A stretch of DNA of 64,000 nucleotides from Eremomyces bilateralis CBS 781.70 (taxonomy: Eukaryota): the NCBI GenBank assembly GCA_010015585.1, contig ML975150.1, one strand, 5' to 3'. The notes under the pieces are model-generated. The model was given only the letters and a program-made list of their open reading frames with translations, searched no databases and was not told the DNA's origin. Each line of letters starts with the position of its first letter. Position 1 is the first letter of the stretch. A program made the position numbers and the translations under genes. Shown piece by piece: positions 12,193 through 21,901 of this stretch.

Positions 12193-13325
12193 ATGAGGAT
12201 AAAATCTGTATGTCGACCATAATTGGAAGATATGCTATCGTCATACTGACGATAGAACCGACAAGCTCTACCTATACCCGATCAAGTCCCTCAGGGGCAT
12301 TTCTATTGATGAAGCACTTGCCACAAGACTTGGATTTCCCCACGATCGTTCATTCATGTTGCTGAAGGTCATCTCTGGGGTGGATGGAGCGGCAGACTCC
12401 ACGAAAACGATGCATGTTCCACACTTTCCGGAGATGTCGCTCTTCATCACCTCTCTGGAAGCAACAGGAGACGGTACGACTGAAATCGTCGTAGACTATA
12501 GACCTCCCGGAAAGTCTTCGAAACAGTTGAGGGTACCACTAGAACCCGACGTGTCCGAACTCGGTTCACTTCATGTCCGGATGTGGAACACGTCGACGCC
12601 AGCATACAACATGGGAGAAACCTTTAATTCCTGGTTCGGCGAATGCTTTGGGTTTCCCGTCATTTTCGCCTACATTGGCGACAATTCCCGGGATGTTCTC
12701 ATGAAAACGTCGAATCCAGATGCGCCCAAGTCGTGGCTCTCGCGTGTTACGTCGGCAGTTGGGATTACTGGCGAGCCCGTGGAGAAGCTCACATTTCAAG
12801 ATTGCGCTTCCTACCTCGTCGTGTCCGACACGTCGGTGCAGAACGTATCTCAAAGGCTTCCGGATGGTGTGGTCATGGACGAGACGAAATTTCGGCCGAA
12901 CATTGTCATCGAAGGGGCACCCGAGCCGTTCGAAGAGGATTTCTGGGGCGAGATCACAGTTTCGGGCGATTCCTCGACCACCTCTGCGGCGACGGCGGTT
13001 GTGAGATTGCCTCAGAATTGCGTTCGGTGCAAGAGCCTCAACATCGACTACGGTACTGGTAAGATGGGGACTGGGGAGGAAGGTCAGGTTTTGAAGAAGT
13101 TGCAGAAAGATCGACGGGTCGACGGGTCGAAAAAGTACAGTCCAGTCTTTGGGAGATACGGCTATTTAGAAAGGAACTCTGGGGGAATAATCAAGGTCGG
13201 CGACGAGGTGTCGGTCACGCTTCGAAATCAGACGAGGACGGGAATGGGTAATTTCCAGTTCCATTTCCACATGTCAACATTAGCTAACCGTGCTCTTAGA
13301 TTGGCCTATGGCCGAGTTCACATAG
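12193..13325 (+). CDS. MOSC-domain protein (mARC/YcbX-like); exons 12193-12207, 12266-13247, 13300-13325
   Basis: MRIKS|LYLYPIKSLRG, GFPHDRSFML, FQDCASYLVVS, KFRPNIVIEG, FEEDFW, NCVRCKSLNID; GT-AG introns with branch points. Confidence 0.9.
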
Positions 13326-13526
13326 ACCTGTGTTCTGAAGCCCACGATTTTCAGAAACCATTCCACCCTGTTGATCATTCTCAGTGTCCCGGTTTTAAGT
13401 GCCATCCTGCTTCCGGTAATCATCAATCAAACTGAGCCTCGCCTTCAGTTGCCTCTGTAGGGCAAACACATTCATCGGCGGCGTAGTCTCGTCCGGCGCT
13501 ATTCGTCCCATTAGCATCGTGCTCAT

Positions 13527-14663
13527 TCACGGTGCTTCCCACTGATATCGTCCCACGTACCTGCTTCCGTTTCGTGCTTCAGGAGTGATGCGCCCGCTAC
13601 GACCTTGCAGAGTCGCTCCAATAATACTTTCGATCAAACGAATCTCTCGTATGAGCGGGACCATCCGCTCTGGGCGCTCTCGTGCAGCTTGGACTAGCTC
13701 TTGCACTTCGCTATAAGCTTGACCGACCTTTCTAACAATGCGTCGCATCTCATCCACCCTCAGCACTGCCTTCGACTCCGATTGCTGACCGGATAGTGCA
13801 ATGTAAAGCCATTCGTCGTGTTTGATGCGAGCTCGTGCGAGTTCCAGAAGGCTGACCAAGAGCTTCTCCGTGACCGACTCGAACATTTTCTTTGACGATC
13901 GTCGGTCTGAATCCTCGCTGTCGACCTCAGTACGCCCTATGGACTCAGTCTTTCCGGTTGCAGAGTGATAGTCTTTCCTGTAGCTCTCCGTGCCAACCCT
14001 CGTGGTACCACTCCACACCGTCCTCGGGCTTCCGTTACTTGTTCGACGGCGGAGAGGATTCACCTTTTGGCGCCAGATCGCCTTCAAGGAGCCTTCGTCC
14101 GCATACGAACGGAGAGGTGCCACTTCTTTTTCATATCCTCGGTAGAACTGTGTATAGAACACTAAGGCATCCTGTGAAGCCAGATTGAGCTTCTTTGCTG
14201 CTTTGACAAAAGGAACACCGGCACTGGCTTTTGGGTGTTGGGCATTGATGGTAGCGATGGACTCCGGAGTCCGCCTCTGGCGCGATGGAACATACTCCTC
14301 CGTGTCCGACTCTTCGATCTCCGTGATCGATGGCGCCCCATTGAAAAGCTGCTGGAGCGACGGCGCGGACGAGCGTTCCCGTTGTCCCTCCTCGCGTAGA
14401 TCATCGTTGTCAGAGAGCTCGAGCGACGGCGGCGCGAAGATCTGATGCATGGCGGCAAAATGGCTGGGCATGTGAGTGAAGCCAGAATGCGCTCGCCAGT
14501 GGTTCGCTGCTGGCATGTTCATGAAGGGTGGAGGTGGTACCCCGTTGAGAAACGGTGGATATGGCGCCGGTGGGACATTCGGAGGGAGGAAAGGTCCCGG
14601 ATACTGGCGAGGATCCGGAGGAAACGGTGAAGGTAGAGGCGGAGGCCATGGCCAAGGATGCAT
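13527..14663 (-). CDS. Hypothetical protein with Pro-rich N-terminus and helical C-terminal half
   Basis: 378-aa ORF; a branch point and acceptor (CTGAC...CAG, about 14692-14673) just upstream suggest a further 5' exon; no family recognised. Confidence 0.6.
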   Translation of the reverse strand: MHPWPWPPPLPSPFPPDPRQYPGPFLPPNVPPAPYPPFLNGVPPPPFMNMPAANHWRAHSGFTHMPSHFAAMHQIFAPPSLELSDNDDLREEGQRERSSAPSLQQLFNGAPSITEIEESDTEEYVPSRQRRTPESIATINAQHPKASAGVPFVKAAKKLNLASQDALVFYTQFYRGYEKEVAPLRSYADEGSLKAIWRQKVNPLRRRTSNGSPRTVWSGTTRVGTESYRKDYHSATGKTESIGRTEVDSEDSDRRSSKKMFESVTEKLLVSLLELARARIKHDEWLYIALSGQQSESKAVLRVDEMRRIVRKVGQAYSEVQELVQAARERPERMVPLIREIRLIESIIGATLQGRSGRITPEARNGSRYVGRYQWEAP

Positions 14664-15055
14664 TTCGGATTCCTGAGATAGGAGCGATGTCAGTACTAAG
14701 GTGAGGTAGTAATTAGCAATGACACAATAACCGGAGCGGATCAGTGGGAGAACAAGTGAATTGGACCGGTTGGCGCTAAAACAGTGCCGTATTTAAATCC
14801 ATCATGAATGATTGCATTTTTGTTGCTCTGAACGCAAGATATGGATTGGCTTCAAACGGAATCGTGATTGATCATGTTTGCCGGATTCTGCAATCATGTG
14901 CGATATGTGGAGTGATAGTAGTTGTCCCACGACTAACAAACCTGAGCCGAGCAAATTCAAATTGGAAGATAATGGATTCCGTAGTCATTGAGTATGCATT
15001 GGTAGAACCAAATAAGACGCTGCGTGGCAATAATTCAGCCAAACGAGCGATACCT

Positions 15056-16957
15056 TTACTTGGGCTTGTTTTTTCTACCCTCAATCACACTCATGACATC
15101 GGCAACACTGTTCTTATCCCCCTTCCGTTTCCTGCGTCTTTTGTCTTTCTTCTCTTTCTTCCCTCCCGCAGCACGGTCATCGTCGTCATCTTCATCCTCT
15201 GCTCCCGCATCCCCCTTCCATTTGCTGAGCTTGATTTTTCGCTCGTCCATATCTTCGGCATCTTCGAAACGACTCCCGCCAAACCCAAGATCGATGTCCT
15301 CCATATCCCGGTCATTCGTCGCCAGCATCTCTGCACGGCGTTTGAGGCGCGCTGCTTCTTCGGGATCTGAAGGGGGCGGAGGTGATCGTGATTGTCGACG
15401 GGGTTTTCGAAGTGCAGCAAGTAGGACTGGATCATGCATGGGGTCGATTCTAGTAGTGGACGGGTCTTCGGGTGCAGAATCCTGGAAATAGTTGCGTTTG
15501 GCAGGGACTTCCGGCTTGGCTTTGGTTGAGTCGACCGGAATGTCTTCTTCCGCAGACAAATCTTCCTCCTCAAATAAGTCTTCATATATTCCAGGCCTCT
15601 GCTCGACTTCTCCTTCATCAGACTCATTAGAATCTGAGTCATCTGCCGCTCCTGCCAGAGGGTTGTACTCCGCGCCCACACCGGTGAATATATCGTCATC
15701 CTCATCGCTCACTGGAGCTAGTGCTTCGAAGCCTTCAGGTACTACCATACCCAGAGGCTTGGCCCCATTCTCTGGCATCAGGAGCTCACTCGTAGGCACG
15801 TCTTTGATTTTCCGGTATTTCCGCTTCTCGTTTCCATCTTCGTCAACGATAATGAGGACTTCCCTGCCTCTGTTATCAACCTCCAGCCGTTGCGACTCTT
15901 GAGTGTGCCCAATCCTTTTGAATTTCGTCCCGAGCTGTGGCGCCTGTGCAGCCTTTGCTTCTGCCGCGGCCTTTCGACTCGCCTTCAGCTCGGCTAGGAT
16001 GGCGTCTCTTTTCCGCTTCGCTCCGCCAATGGCAAGTTGGCCCTTCTTCTCTTTCTTCTCTTGTTGTAGCGGCGCAATGTCTTTGTCTAGCATTGCCTCT
16101 AACTCTTCATCCACGCCCTCTACACCGCCCTCGCCTTGTGGGCGATCGTTCTCAGACTGGCCCGAGGGACTCATTGTCGAGTAAACATCCTCACCCCTCC
16201 TAACCCTCTCCAACAGCCTTCGATCTAAGCCCTTGATAAGATGTGTCGTGCTAATATCGCCTCCGGTTATCTCATCGCGGAGTCGTTCGAATGTCTCCTC
16301 GTCAATGTCGCCATCCTTGAACGACTTCTCCAGGGCGGCGATGCGCTCCGTCCGATCGTCATTCTCAACCTCCTCAGCTGTTCGTCGATCGAGAGCACGA
16401 TCGCGGTATCCGTCGGCGTATTTTGTACCCTTCGGGGCAGCTGAAGATTTGTATTTCGCGGTCGGTGGTCGTCCGCCTTGAGCGGCTATTTGGGCGGCGA
16501 TGTTGGGGACAGTTGTGCCTTTGACTGATCGACTGAAGCAGGTCAGAATCACTGCCCAAAATGTTGTAGTACGGTCACTCTGTGAATGCAGAAATTGATG
16601 GTCAATACCTTTGACATACATCTCCGCGAGCTAGACAAATATATACTGAGTAGCTTAGAGCAACTGCTGCCAGGGAAGGAAGGGGTATATGCTATCGCCA
16701 ATCTGTGAACTCTAGACAGAGCTAGCGCCACTACTAAATCACGTCTGTAGTTCCTTAAGCCCCGGAGGTATACATCTTCACGACCATCAATCTCTGCATC
16801 TACGGAGTGCTTGGGAATGCAGCACTTACGGTGTCATGGGGAAGGAGGCCCTTGATCGGGAGCCAAGCGATGAGGGTGGCGGTCCCCCATTGGAGCCCTT
16901 CGGCTTACCGTTGGAGGAGTTCTCCTGTAATAGTCGCCTAAACTGTTCGTTGTTCAT
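15056..16957 (-). CDS. RED-like (IK/Smu-2 family, RED_N domain) spliceosomal protein; exons 16957-16830 and 16532-15056
   Basis: Exon 1 MNNEQFRRLL...SRSRASFPMTP joins in frame across a GTAAGT...CTGAC...CAG intron; YRDRA and GGDISTTHLIKGLDRRLLERVR match the RED_N signature. Confidence 0.85.
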
Positions 16958-17330
16958 CGTGATGTCGGTGTGGTAGATCAAATGGTTCAGCAATCAACAG
17001 TCATGAAATCTTGACTGCCGTGGAACACTTGGAGATTGATGGTGGAGGGAAGTCGAAGGACGCCTTGTGGCCTTATGTCAATGCCTTGCCTCGTTGCCTT
17101 GATATAATTTCATTTAGTGCCTTAAGGAAATCGCGGAGGCGCAGTCGGATCCAAATTCCAAACTAAATTCATGATTTCCGCCGTCCACGAATCCAATTTC
17201 GACCTTCAATTTGCTGTGTTTGTTCCATTCACTGTGTTTCTGTCCATTTCCAACTCGAATCAAGTCTTGATTCACGTTGTGTTTCCTGCCCAATCCGGTT
17301 TAGCGTCACATAGCCCCACCAGTGATGGAG

Positions 17331-17410
17331 CTAACCCTAATCGGGTTCCAACCTGTCCATAAAAGCCGCCCAACTTCCACTCTTTCCTTTTCTTTTTCTT
17401 CTTCTTCTTC
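17331..17410 (+). promoter_or_regulatory. Putative U1 snRNA promoter: telobox CTAACCCTAA, TATA-like CATAAAAG and a pyrimidine tract
   Basis: CTAACCCTAA 17331-17340, CATAAAAG 17358-17365, CT-rich tract running up to the +1 of U1. Confidence 0.45.
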
Positions 17411-17571
17411 ATACTTACCTTGTTGCAGCGACGCCGTGATCAAGAAGACGGCGGCTTGCTAGACTGCCCTGCATTGCACATCGCGGAGGTGGGCTAGTAT
17501 CAGTCTCCTTCGGGGGCCTGAGCGGCGGAATTTTTGATGGCTACCAAAATAATCTTTTCAATCTTGTCATC
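17411..17571 (+). ncRNA. U1: U1 spliceosomal snRNA
   Basis: 5' ATACTTACCT; SL1 CGCCGT-GATCAAGAAG-ACGGCG (U1-70K loop); SL2 loop ATTGCAC (U1A site); SL3 with UUCG tetraloop; Sm site AATTTTTG 17529-17536; 3' stem GATGGC/GTCATC. The 3' end is approximate. Confidence 0.93.
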
Positions 17572-18282
17572 GCCTGGTGCGACGCTTGGTGGAAGAGCTG
17601 GTGTGAGTGATACCGCCTGGATTTTGCCGGTTGCGGTACATTACCTGTCAGGTATGTTACGCTGTCACGCATGTTGATCCTTCCGAATATCAATCCTCAG
17701 TACAACATATTTTTCCCTCCGTTTGTCCTCGATCTGCTCTTGCTTTACTATGTAGGCGGCCCTGTTGGTGAAAGTCACTCAAGAATCCAGGTTTTGCGCG
17801 CTTCAATTTGTCCATTTTACGCGATCATGATGGGAGGCTTCAGTCTTAACGACACAACTAGAACTACCTCTTAGATACCCCATCGAGCGTCGACTGCTTG
17901 AATCCATTACGACTACAGGCTCATCTAATAATATTCTCTCGGCAGTTGATCCAGTCGAACCATTTCAATTCGCACTCATGTTCTATCATTTCCATGGTTT
18001 CTACAACACAACCTGCGCTGCACATCTGGGATGGTTGCCTACAATACGGAGGACAGAGTCAACGAGCAAAGCTGACACCACATCATCAATAGTACAATTC
18101 TTTGTGTCTTTTATGCGCGCATTCAACTTGGACAAGGATATGAGCATAAGGAATCCATTCGTGCTTGCTCTAACGAGACTCTCCAGGAGCCATTAATCTA
18201 ACCGAAAAACAAGGAAATAAGAAAATCAGGCACAATATCCGGCCCGAAGTCAATTTCATTCTATTCTTTGCGGGTACAGATA

Positions 18283-19232
18283 TCAAACCATTCCATGCTC
18301 CGTTTTCCAGGATAACTCGAGTTCGAAGTAGGTGAGTAGATTTGTCAGCATCTCGACCACCTCCCCGTCGAACGTATTCTCAGACAAGGCGGTGATCGTC
18401 AATGCTGCGGCATCCCCAGAAGACTACTTGTTGCCGGAGAGACTGACCAGAGCCAACGCCTCCACGAAGTCGCCGACCTCCCCAACGAACTGGAATTGCG
18501 AAAGGATCTCGCGCAGAGTCCAAATTCCTATGGGCGCGCTCCTAGGGAGGCAAGGGAGCTCACTCAAAGCTAGACGAACCGTCTAACCGTCCTCCCAGGT
18601 ATGAACGAGAACTTCGAGCAGGCGTATAATCCCGTCGACAATGACTTCCTCGTGGAGCCTCAATCGGCTCAGGGTCTCAACAAATTCGGGGGTGACTTCC
18701 GTGCCACGGGCGGCCAAGATCGCAGCCGTTCGGAGAAGTGTGGTCCCAGAGATGTAGCCATTTTCGTCTAAGTTCTCCAGCGCCAACGCCAGAGACGAAA
18801 CGTTGAGACGTTCGATGGCTGGCGGTGCGGTGCTTGGAGGCTCAGTGACCGGAGGGGTGGAGACTGGAGGCCTGGTGACTGGAGGTTTAGTGGTGGGATG
18901 GATGGTGGCCGGCTCGCTATGCGACCAAAGACCGAAGGAACTCGAAGCCTTGTCCATGCCCGGAGGCCTGGGAGAAGGCTGGGTGGCCGGACGTCTGATA
19001 GCCGGCCCATCAAGTAGTGACCAGTATGAAATCGCCGAGGGCGTCGGATCAGTGCTCGTGGAAGAGGTGGTTGGAGTTCGACGAATGTTACTAAGAAGTG
19101 AAATCTGCGAGCTACTAGTCGAGCTACTAGTCGAGCTACTAGTCCAGCTGCCAGTCCGCTGACTTTTTTCTTACGCTCCTTTATCCTGTCGCTCTTCTCC
19201 CGAAGGAGGGCCAGGAGAGCTAGAAGATTCAT
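18283..19232 (-). pseudogene. Disrupted orphan gene (about 315 codons): one frameshift and two in-frame TAG stops
   Basis: MNLLALLALLREKSDRIKERKKK joins a Ser/Thr/Pro-rich frame via a 1-nt shift in an A6 run (about 19164-19169); the frame stays open past TAGs at 18585-18583 and 18426-18424 to TGA at 18285-18283. Confidence 0.5.
19109..19156. repeat. 12-bp tandem repeat GAGCTACTAGTC x3 plus one degenerate copy
   Basis: Directly visible; reads TSSS repeats in the minus-strand pseudogene frame. Confidence 0.85.
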
Positions 19233-19829
19233 TTTTGTGTGTTCTTTTTGAAGAGGAACTACTGTTCTAAAGAGAAGTAAAAGACGGCTTCATCTATCGC
19301 TGAAGTTAGCTGCTTAGATGCACGAGGTGCGGTGCCATCGTATCCAACTACAATGGCAGAGCAGTATAGGAGCCGCTTTCATCATACTGCTGCTAGTAGT
19401 GCCATTGTTCAGGCTAACAAAGTCGCATTAAATCAAATGGTCTTCCTGTGGATCGAGTCTCTCAAAAGTCGGTCATGTCAGCGTCAGACGGGAAGCCAGT
19501 CGAATTGTTTACAGTCGCGAGGAGATTCGGTTTCCGGTATTACATTTTGGATTCTTCTCAGCGCACGGATGTCTTCCATACGCTTTATTTAAATGATCTT
19601 AAAGCTAAACAGGGATTGAGCTGAAGCTGGCCTCAAAAGAACGCTGTTAAAATGCAGAGAGTATGGTGGCAACGAAAGCCATTTGACTGTCAAGTGGGTA
19701 TATCACTGGACACATCAAATCAACGATTATTACCAATCCGAGAACCGCATGGAATTTACAGCAGATTGATTTCAAAGCAATAGCAGTTCTTGTCTAAATT
19801 ATACAGAATATTTAAGAGCGTGGATGACT

Positions 19830-20677
19830 TTAGGTGGTGGGTGGGGAAGAGGCTGAAAATGATATACCACTGAAGGACTCCAGCAGCTTGACGATACGCT
19901 CGTGCCCGTTCACGGCCGCCCACCACAGCGGCGTCCTACCGTCGTCATCCTTCGAGTCGACGTCGGCCTTGGCCTCGAGCAGCACCTTGACGATACCCTC
20001 GTGCCCAAAATATGACTCTACCATCAGAATGCTTGTGAACTCTGGAATAGGGTGCCACTGGTAAGCCATCTGCCAGTACACATCAAACCAAGTCTTGAAC
20101 CGCTAGGATCGGTTATCGCAGACTCTGGAAATCAAGTGCAACATTTTCTCAGCTGCACTATACTATGCATTTCGGTAGTGGGTAGCCCAAGAACCTGCGG
20201 CATAATCTAAGTAGCCGTCTTTGACTTCTGCAGAGATCTGATCTGTCGCTCCATCAAATTCAGTGAACGAAAGACATGTAAGGCATGCTCTGGCCATAAG
20301 GGTCTCAGAATCCGTTGGAACAAGAGAATGCTTCCATCCAATAGCAGCGGTCTCACTCTTCGCAAGAAGGAATTCTTTTGCGGTCTGGTGGATCAGATAG
20401 ACCTTTCGATTTACTAGTCACAAAGAGCCCGCAGAGGTGTCTCACCGACGCTTCAACCTCGCTTCATCGTCAAGGTCAGGTTCAAGATCGTTGTAGGAGC
20501 GATGACGGTCTTCTATAGTCAGAGCTATGTTTATTTCCCTTAGTGTAAGAGGCCTGGTTACTCCAACAACGATAGAGAGCAATTTCCGTGCTTGTGGTCG
20601 ATCCTCCTCTTCGATTTTTGTAAGAATCGCTTCGTATGCTTCATTAACTGTAGACGGAAGGTCGCTTATATTAACTG
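19830..20677 (-). pseudogene. Remnant of a fungal NLR-like NACHT-winged-helix-ankyrin gene (5'-truncated, with stops and frameshifts)
   Basis: LPSTVNEAYEAIL, RPLTLREINIAL, LCGLFV, VYLIHQTAKEFL, YLDYAAGSWATH, then ankyrin repeats [42 protein letters not shown]. Confidence 0.85.
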
Positions 20678-20956
20678 CCTCTCGGCGAGGCCCATGCGGG
20701 GCTCCCACTACTCTAGAGCGACGCCCCCTGGCCGGCTGGCCCCGTGTCGATTAGTCAGCATTGTGCCCACTGCGGGACTGCGGTCTCATCCTGGTAATTG
20801 ATATTTGGTTATATAACCGTCGTAAACTCCCTTGTTATTTTATTTCTTCAGTTAAAAACTCAACAGTCAGAGTCAATCAAGACCGAGCCCGACACCGCCT
20901 CTTTTTGTATCAGGAATACACAACGAAGAGGTACGGCTCCCGTGCCGAAAGGCCCC

Positions 20957-21901
20957 ATGGAATCCGCGCCAGATTACTCACTGACAAATCCAGTCCGCCT
21001 GACCGGCTCAATATGGGTCGGGAGTGCCAAACCGGATGACATTTCCTGGACTGTCGTGTACCGGCCGTTGCTGGATTGGATCAACCAAAATCAACCCCAG
21101 GCCTTCATCATCCGCTGCCAATTGCTGCTGCTTGACCCTAAAGGCAAATGGGATCCTATTCATACTGCAGTCCACGTTAACAATCACGAGGCTGCCAATG
21201 TACCTCAGTCGTCGCCAGCTCCGGCACGGCTCGGGGGGGAGCTACCGACCGCTTCCCCCACGACATGGACCGCCCGAATGCCCGGCATCTTGCACCTACC
21301 GGGCCTGGATATGTCCGAAATCGTCTGTGTGATCGTCAAAAGCCGCCTCGTCATTCGCTATCTGCTTCTCTGGGAGCACGGGTCGAAGAAAGGCTGGCCC
21401 GGCAAACCCCAGATTCCCTACGGGGTCAAGTATGAAGACCTCCGCACGAAGCTGCTGAAAAGCGAAACCCACAAGGCGGCGAAATCCTCGCTGGCCACAG
21501 CAGCCACGATTCCCAATTCTATCAGCCGTTACCTGAGCAATGAGATGCAAGCACGTAGCGCCGGGAGGCGGAGGAAGAAGGAGGAGAAGCACGAAGGGGA
21601 GCTCAAGAACTCGCATCTTGAAATAAATGTCAGGCTCGTCCTGACGGGTGTCTCGCACACTACCGATCCGCAGGAAGAGGTTGGGAAGTTCGATCCTCCT
21701 GTATATTTCGAGGGCACATTCGATGTGCTTGGGTACAGGGTTTATCCACTTCGGACATCGTTAGCCCAACTGATGCTAGGCCGCCGGAGTGAGCTTCTGC
21801 GGAGTAGCAGTGAGGTAAGAAGACTGAGAAAGGGGAGCAGAATGGAATCAGGCTCGAAAATGCGAAGTCGAGTCCTAAGTCCTGCAACATCGCCAAGGTA
21901 A
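20957..21901 (+). CDS. Orphan hypothetical protein (about 314 aa from ATG 20957); 3' end may be spliced (GTAAGC at 21898, CTAAT..AG)
   Basis: Long ORF with C/G-ending codon bias; no recognisable motif. Confidence 0.5.
   Translation: MESAPDYSLTNPVRLTGSIWVGSAKPDDISWTVVYRPLLDWINQNQPQAFIIRCQLLLLDPKGKWDPIHTAVHVNNHEAANVPQSSPAPARLGGELPTASPTTWTARMPGILHLPGLDMSEIVCVIVKSRLVIRYLLLWEHGSKKGWPGKPQIPYGVKYEDLRTKLLKSETHKAAKSSLATAATIPNSISRYLSNEMQARSAGRRRKKEEKHEGELKNSHLEINVRLVLTGVSHTTDPQEEVGKFDPPVYFEGTFDVLGYRVYPLRTSLAQLMLGRRSELLRSSSEVRRLRKGSRMESGSKMRSRVLSPATSPR

Follow-up and report, generated by a model that had tools for sequence, protein, structure and literature searches.

Our analysis of the RED-like gene of Eremomyces bilateralis CBS 781.70 reveals that the 297-nt interval between exons 1 and 2 is an alternatively spliced unit with one productive route and one stop-carrying route. 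In the productive route, the whole interval is removed as a single intron, while in the stop-carrying route two mini-introns, A and B, are removed and a 167-nt cassette exon is kept between them. The interval carries the strongest local inverted repeat of the whole 64-kb stretch of DNA that was analysed (the window), with one arm in each mini-intron. We propose, with slightly better than even confidence and on the basis of predicted folding and splice-site geometry, that a stem formed across the two mini-introns would loop out the stop-carrying (poison) exon, leading to its skipping and to productive mRNA.

The RED-like gene and its two exons

The window matches Eremomyces bilateralis CBS 781.70, since the translation of exon 2 shows 100% identity to a protein of this species. 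The gene product contains a match to Pfam RED_N (PF07808; 30.4 bits against a cut-off of 22) and has 952 relatives, many of which bear a RED-like name and the best named of which are RED-like proteins of Dothideomycetes. The score above the curated Pfam cut-off, together with orthology to named RED-like proteins, identifies it as a RED-like protein. Exon 1 (16830..16957, minus strand; 128 nt) starts with the ATG at 16957-16955 and ends in codon phase 2, and exon 2 (15056..16532, minus strand) is an open frame of 491 codons plus the stop. Exon 1 encodes 43 residues at the start of the protein, which agree with the N-terminus conserved among orthologues P0003-P0034.

Two splicing routes through the 297-nt interval

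Splice joints were taken from contigs of four public runs (X1, X3, X4, and X5) aligned to window positions 13000-21000, where X5 gave no alignment. Run X1 consists of DNA and may be what the assembly was made from; a single X1 contig crosses the region and has no joints there. Run X3 was taken to be cDNA, its RNA origin being inferred from canonical GT..AG joints at several introns. X3 joints starting from 16830 mark the border of exon 1, and an X3 contig covers 13561-16532, including exon 2. Three X3 joints fall in the 297-nt interval, all of them GT..AG on the minus strand, and none is present in the DNA run.

The first of these joints (16532>16830, X3 depth 173.5) removes the outer intron (16533..16829, minus strand; 297 nt), which has the form GTAAGT...CTGAC...CAG. 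Removal of all 297 nt gives a spliced translation that is continuous with conserved sequence, and hence the productive mRNA. The joint and the conserved N-terminus of the orthologues confirm the minus-strand borders of the outer intron, 16829 (GT) and 16533 (AG), that had been assigned in the initial annotation. The second joint (16775>16830) removes mini-intron A (16776..16829, minus strand; 54 nt), which shares the outer 5′ splice site, and the third joint (16532>16609) removes mini-intron B (16533..16608, minus strand; 76 nt), which shares the outer branch site and the outer 3′ splice site. These two joints bound the cassette exon (16609..16775, minus strand; 167 nt). Having the same depth, 104.2, and 30-nt sides, they are best read as parts of one short contig that contains the 167-nt exon.

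When the 167-nt exon is included, the reading frame changes and, 11 new codons on, runs into a TGA (16741-16739), making it an alternative exon with a premature stop, as in the structure-controlled poison exons of the BRD2/BRD3 type. Translation of the inclusion form revealed no downstream ATG that would restore the RED frame after removal of the 76-nt intron. X3 depths are contig means and indicate orders of magnitude only; on that scale both isoforms are clearly present and the inclusion form is abundant among X3 contigs (104.2 versus 173.5, as rough figures), indicating that the stem discussed below does not suppress the exon efficiently. The other X3 joints listed in 13000-21000, a spot check of the earlier claim that most introns here are short, span 52, 62, and 68 nt.

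The public gene model of the locus, P0002, differs from both routes. In particular, within 16553-16621 (minus strand) it starts at ATG 16621, inside the optional exon, and uses a 56-nt intron that ends at 16553, and it does not contain the first 43 residues conserved in the orthologues. The 3′ site that its N-terminus requires is absent among the X3 joints listed, and the inclusion isoform probably led to an erroneous annotation in P0002. Separately, ATG 16621 is in frame with exon 2 when mini-intron B is kept, giving a 521-aa ORF (15056-16621, minus strand); judged from the reading frame, a transcript that includes the exon and retains intron B could therefore encode an N-terminally truncated RED-like protein.

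An inverted repeat with one arm in each mini-intron

The upstream arm of the inverted repeat (16782..16809, minus strand) lies within mini-intron A, and the downstream arm (16576..16603, minus strand) lies within mini-intron B, so that complementary regions are present in both introns flanking the exon, as in BRD2 and BRD3. The arms are 28 nt long and 86% complementary (24 Watson-Crick pairs, 2 G-U pairs, and 2 mismatches), in agreement with the 28-nt repeat with 24 exact pairs first described at these positions. They come very close to the inner splice sites: the upstream arm is 6 nt from the inner 3′ splice site, and the downstream arm begins 5 nt past the inner 5′ splice site. At match and mismatch scores of +1/−1, the repeat scores 20, compared with maxima of 14-19 in whole-window dinucleotide shuffles, none of 40 of which reach its score; at +1/−2, one of 40 whole-window shuffles reaches it. 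Pure chance was rejected as the origin of the repeat on these shuffle results.

The predicted folding energy of the 297-nt intron RNA is −95.7 kcal/mol (z = −2.6), a value reached by 0 of 200 shuffles, and the predicted fold has an uninterrupted helix of 20 bp. The opposite strand of the intron folds about equally well (z = −2.8), and the core duplex is equally stable on either strand (−40.0 kcal/mol transcribed versus −39.9 kcal/mol opposite). The core is thus strand-symmetric, indicating a repeat at the DNA level whose existence requires no selection at the RNA level. Beyond the core, the rod can be extended to 57 bp (47 Watson-Crick and 10 G-U pairs), and here the predicted stability is −70.5 kcal/mol on the transcribed strand versus −60.7 kcal/mol on the opposite strand, a difference that amounts to no more than a weak hint.

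The inner extension of the rod joins, in the minimum-free-energy fold, a 5′ side (16758..16776, minus strand), which takes in 18 nt at the start of the cassette exon and the base just before them, the final one of mini-intron A, to a 3′ side (16613..16632, minus strand), which lies in the last 24 nt of the cassette exon. Specifically, the extension consists of helices 16776-16769/16613-16620, 16767-16763/16622-16626, and 16762-16758/16628-16632, and the second helix proposed initially, 16613-16626/16763-16776, is part of this fold. Several G-U pairs of the inner extension form on the transcribed strand only. An accompanying proposal, that G-U pairs favour the minus strand, accordingly stands for the extensions and falls for the 28-nt core; a G-U strand bias in the core was rejected, the counts being symmetric on both strands.

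Splice signals and a proposed loop-out of the poison exon

The branch-site consensus of filamentous fungi is CTRAC. The outer splice signals of the interval follow consensus (GTAAGT, CTGAC, and CAG), while the inner splice sites are weak (GTATTG at the 5′ site and AAG at the 3′ site). The branch site that serves both the outer intron and mini-intron B, located by motif search, is CTGAC at 16542..16546 (minus strand); its branch A, at 16543, precedes the 3′ splice site by 10 nt. Mini-intron A has a sole branch-like motif, TTGAT (16790-16786), and this candidate lies inside the upstream arm. In the full pre-mRNA the predicted pairing probability is 1.0 at 16789-16785, overlapping TTGAT. In nascent transcripts that do not yet contain the downstream arm, the predicted pairing of 16790-16786 is 0.6-0.77, and it rises to 1.0 once that arm is present.

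The core stem begins at 16809, 20 nt into the intron, and 32 nt separate the end of the downstream arm at 16576 from the branch A at 16543. Single-stranded linkers of 20 nt on the 5′ splice site side and 32 nt on the branch side therefore remain outside the core stem, and the effective donor-to-branch distance of about 50 nt given in the initial annotation holds, at 52 nt. By comparison, the distance from 5′ splice site to branch site is 42 nt and 65 nt in the two mini-introns and 286 nt in the unfolded long intron. Outer predicted helices, 16819-16810, begin after 10 nt and would probably need to open for a zipper geometry.

These features suggest a model in which the stem influences the choice of route. 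Removal of the whole 297 nt through the strong outer sites gives productive mRNA; in the alternative, the two mini-introns are removed and the 167-nt stop-carrying exon is kept. The stem, when formed, would bury the sole branch-like motif of mini-intron A as well as the neighbourhoods of both weak inner splice sites, and it would leave the outer 5′ splice site, together with the branch site, on the 20- and 32-nt linkers, such that the long intron would act as a short fungal intron. Inclusion would result if splicing of mini-intron A came ahead of transcription and pairing of the downstream arm, which follows at a distance of 178 nt, and the amount of functional RED mRNA would then be set by how the two routes are balanced.

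Since each arm lies in one mini-intron, the likely role of the stem is a loop-out combined with a zipper effect, rather than merely to create a RED-sensitive intron. The original reading of the fold-back as an influence on splicing was right in that the structure is real and is placed to affect its own transcript, and it missed the 167-nt exon with its premature stop. If the stem works as proposed, the interval would offer a compact, easily mutated model, about 300 nt in size, for the rescue of a long intron by structure in an organism that splices by intron definition, and it could reveal the way in which a hairpin insertion comes to control the dosage of a spliceosomal protein.

Orthologous introns and the origin of the element

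A metagenome scan yielded 80 orthologous loci, 76 of which include the N-terminus. An intron is present at exactly the same codon position and phase in 53 of the 76 loci, with a length of 48-87 nt (median 55); 22 of the 76 have no intron at the site, and one (L026) is unclear. A single tblastn alignment runs across the N-terminus in 42 of the 80 loci, including the 22 intronless ones. The shared position in 53 of 76 loci indicates that the site is ancient and that the 297-nt length is lineage-specific. As a side observation, the length is divisible by three in 20 of these 53 introns (including those of L003, L006-L008, L017, L018, L035, L036, L038, L043, and L052); retention of such in-frame introns would add residues and no stop.

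The nearest relative seen, X4, is diverged: its best-conserved exon parts are 81-88% identical, and only conserved pieces align. On a collinear X4 contig, 477 letters separate the positions corresponding to 16339 and 16822, compared with 482 in E. bilateralis (the intron plus 193 nt of exon), while neighbouring coding gaps differ between the two genomes by 0 or 3 letters. Judged by this spacing, X4 probably keeps an intron of about 290 nt, and the long intron is probably old. Absence from orthologous introns had been named at the outset as an observation that would speak against a regulatory structure. The fold-back element is absent from all 53 distant introns, which are 48-87 nt long and unalignable, and the nearest relative seen probably has an intron of similar length.

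A possible but clearly less probable explanation than loop-out of the poison exon is that the element is a neutral remnant. A hairpin insertion of about 234 nt (a MITE, an introner-like element, or a local inverted duplication) would have entered an ancestral intron of about 63 nt, and cryptic splice sites within the insertion would give rise to an isoform that is noise and of no use; a stem might still form, with no selected role. Several features are consistent with such an origin. The element (16576-16809) is 234 nt long, within the roughly 100-600 bp of MITEs and introner-like elements, and has 28-nt terminal arms of 86% complementarity; size and arms are like those of small DNA transposons and like the terminal repeats of fungal sister stwintrons. 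Its removal leaves a 63-nt intron with all outer signals, which points to insertion or local duplication, and 63 nt lies between the extremes of 48 and 87 nt among the introns of the 53 orthologous loci. Internal direct repeats (D1 and D2) are present at both ends of the cassette exon. The strand symmetry of the core repeat would also be given by a neutral insertion, and the splicing noise of a recent insertion would look like the abundant inclusion isoform.

Other features argue against a neutral remnant. No second copy of the element is present in the 64-kb window, and X1 depth over the intron is not raised: at 168.4 it equals that of the flanks, which is the single-copy level at a likeness of at least 80%, in contrast to a true repeat at 19.5-20.7 kb, where X1 depth climbs about 19-fold, to 3200. 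The multi-copy MITE remnant that the initial annotation had set against its own reading was thus not encountered, nor, within the window and at the at least 80% likeness to which X1 depth responds, was the multi-copy character expected of a MITE. The flanks of the arms share no direct repeat of 2-9 nt, so that the arm ends show no visible target-site duplication, although a short one could have decayed. Moreover, X4, whose less conserved exon parts have diverged too far to align at 80%, still appears to have the intron of about 290 nt, and unconstrained arms of such age would be expected to keep fewer than 26 of 28 pairs.

The likeness to MITEs, introner-like elements, and sister stwintrons (PMC3609843 and PMC9024468) lies in an intronic element, about 234 nt in size and ending in inverted repeats of 28 nt, and in the stable hairpin that it is predicted to form and that would mask a branch site. 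The element differs from them in having no multi-copy family, as far as the window and X1 depth indicate, and no visible target-site duplication. Since the intron position itself is ancient, the RED-like intron is not an intron gain.

Autoregulation and non-coding RNA as alternatives

Nearly all fungal introns are short. An effective distance of 52 nt is therefore the norm for a fungus and makes the folded intron an ordinary one; the RED sensitivity proposed in the initial annotation is speculative. The premise of that proposal, that human Smu1/RED is needed when the distance from 5′ splice site to branch site is short, is found in Keiper et al. (2019, PMC6692369).

A different form of autoregulation is conceivable, although it is speculative and we regard it as improbable. 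The gene would gauge its own activity as a RED/Smu1 sensor: high activity would promote splicing of the mini-introns through a RED-dependent route and hence more poison inclusion and poisoned mRNA, low activity would leave removal of the long intron, and the result would be negative feedback, with the stem acting as a timer that closes the mini-intron route and forces removal of the 297 nt. The distances fit, being 42 and 65 nt in the mini-introns versus 286 nt in the unfolded long intron, in view of the requirement for human Smu1/RED, which become essential at short distances (PMC6692369); unproductive splicing of splicing-factor genes is, in addition, described as widespread and as present in fungi (PMC4379411). 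Against such a sensor, the long intron with its stem formed is also short, at 52 nt, which removes the differential; shortness is in any case near-universal among fungal introns; and the arrangement occurs in no other orthologue among the 53 introns compared. If true, it would constitute a case of negative feedback in a filamentous fungus that is gated by structure, read out kinetically, and derived from a hairpin insertion, with the first poison cassette exon of such a type described in fungi.

Inverted repeats near exon splice sites favour circularisation in animals. With inverted repeats in its flanking introns 5-6 nt from the exon splice sites, and with its 20-bp uninterrupted helix, the fold-back could in principle be a milRNA or snoRNA precursor or cause the 167-nt exon to be back-spliced to form a circular RNA, but we consider this very improbable: a scan of 15000-18500 against Rfam 15 gave no covariance match within 16533-16829 at E ≤ 1, ARAGORN found no tRNA in the intron, so that the ncRNA or milRNA reading offered initially gains no support, and no joint that goes back is seen in the interval among the X3 joints listed. 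A box C/D snoRNA was dropped as a candidate on reading the sequence, there being no C/D box arrangement beside the terminal stem.

Comparison with known systems

In animals there is good documentation both of cassette poison exons and of the long-range RNA structures by which they are controlled; to our knowledge both are hardly documented in filamentous fungi, in which introns are tiny and intron retention is dominant. Inverted Alu pairs reportedly act in loop-out exon skipping (PMC13019027). In the literature that we searched, we found no case of a fungal poison exon looped out by a structure. On its predicted fold, the RED-like intron would join two known kinds, the loop-out poison exon and the zipper stem, the functional part of which we infer.

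The first of these kinds is represented by human BRD2 exon 3b and BRD3 exon 5b, poison exons whose control by complementary regions in the flanking introns was shown experimentally (Petrova et al. 2024, PMC10789245). The RED-like interval resembles these genes in having a premature-stop cassette exon between two complementary intronic segments, in that the structure would be expected to decide between inclusion and skipping, and in that the outcome would depend on folding time. It differs from them in belonging to a filamentous fungus with intron-definition splicing, in having flanking introns of just 54 and 76 nt, and in having arms that fill most of the mini-introns and cover a branch site, with a pairing that is predicted from one species.

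The second kind is represented by the zipper stems of the Saccharomyces cerevisiae introns RPS17B and RPL7B (Rangan et al. 2025, PMC12350175). A zipper stem is defined there by a length of at least 6 bp with few bulges, together with support from in vivo probing or from a change in splicing. The stem predicted here falls within the positional limits described for yeast, with 20 nt plus 32 nt, 52 nt in total, and exceeds the length limit, with 26 of 28 positions pairing at a predicted −40 kcal/mol. Unlike the yeast stems, which enclose intron sequence only, it has between its arms an alternative exon that brings splice sites of its own.

A third comparison is with unproductive splicing coupled to NMD in splicing-factor genes, which includes the fungal SRSF5 orthologue srp2 and takes the form of intron retention there (Lareau and Brenner 2015, PMC4379411). 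Like srp2, the RED-like gene is spliceosome-related and has a stop-containing isoform that derives from an intron unusually long for a fungus. Unlike the retention event in srp2, the event in the RED-like gene is a cassette exon; the same paper describes the fungal SRSF5 orthologue as having no poison cassette exon.

Neighbourhood of the RED-like gene

A U1 snRNA gene (17411-17544, plus strand) is divergent from the RED-like gene and lies about 450 nt from its ATG. The Rfam U1 match has 60.4 bits and an E-value of 8.7e-14, below the gathering score of 69.5, and both the U1 5′ end, ATACTTACCT, and an Sm-like element, AATTTTTGA, are readable directly in the sequence. A second, slightly different U1 copy is present in runs X1 and X3, and X4 keeps U1 beside the RED gene. 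In distant loci, Rfam gave 0 matches near RED at the gathering threshold (19 of the 80 loci) and blastn gave none, while nhmmer with the U1 of the window gave one match over the 80 loci, in L010, downstream of the gene and thus on the opposite side. The U1-RED neighbourhood was rejected as a conserved feature, this downstream match in L010 being the lone U1-like match among the 80 loci.

Farther along the window, the region 19510-20660 is multi-copy, with a summed X1 contig depth of about 3200 versus 168 in its flanks. Many diverged contigs, and joints that go back by 62, 81, and 99 nt, suggest tandem or dispersed repeats. The region is also found in X3.

On the other side, one unbroken X3 contig (13000-16532) links exon 2 of the RED-like gene to the minus-strand gene that comes next (ORF 13527-14663), with introns of 52 nt (13247-13298) and 62 nt (13499-13560), and the transcripts of the RED-like gene and of this neighbour abut or overlap.
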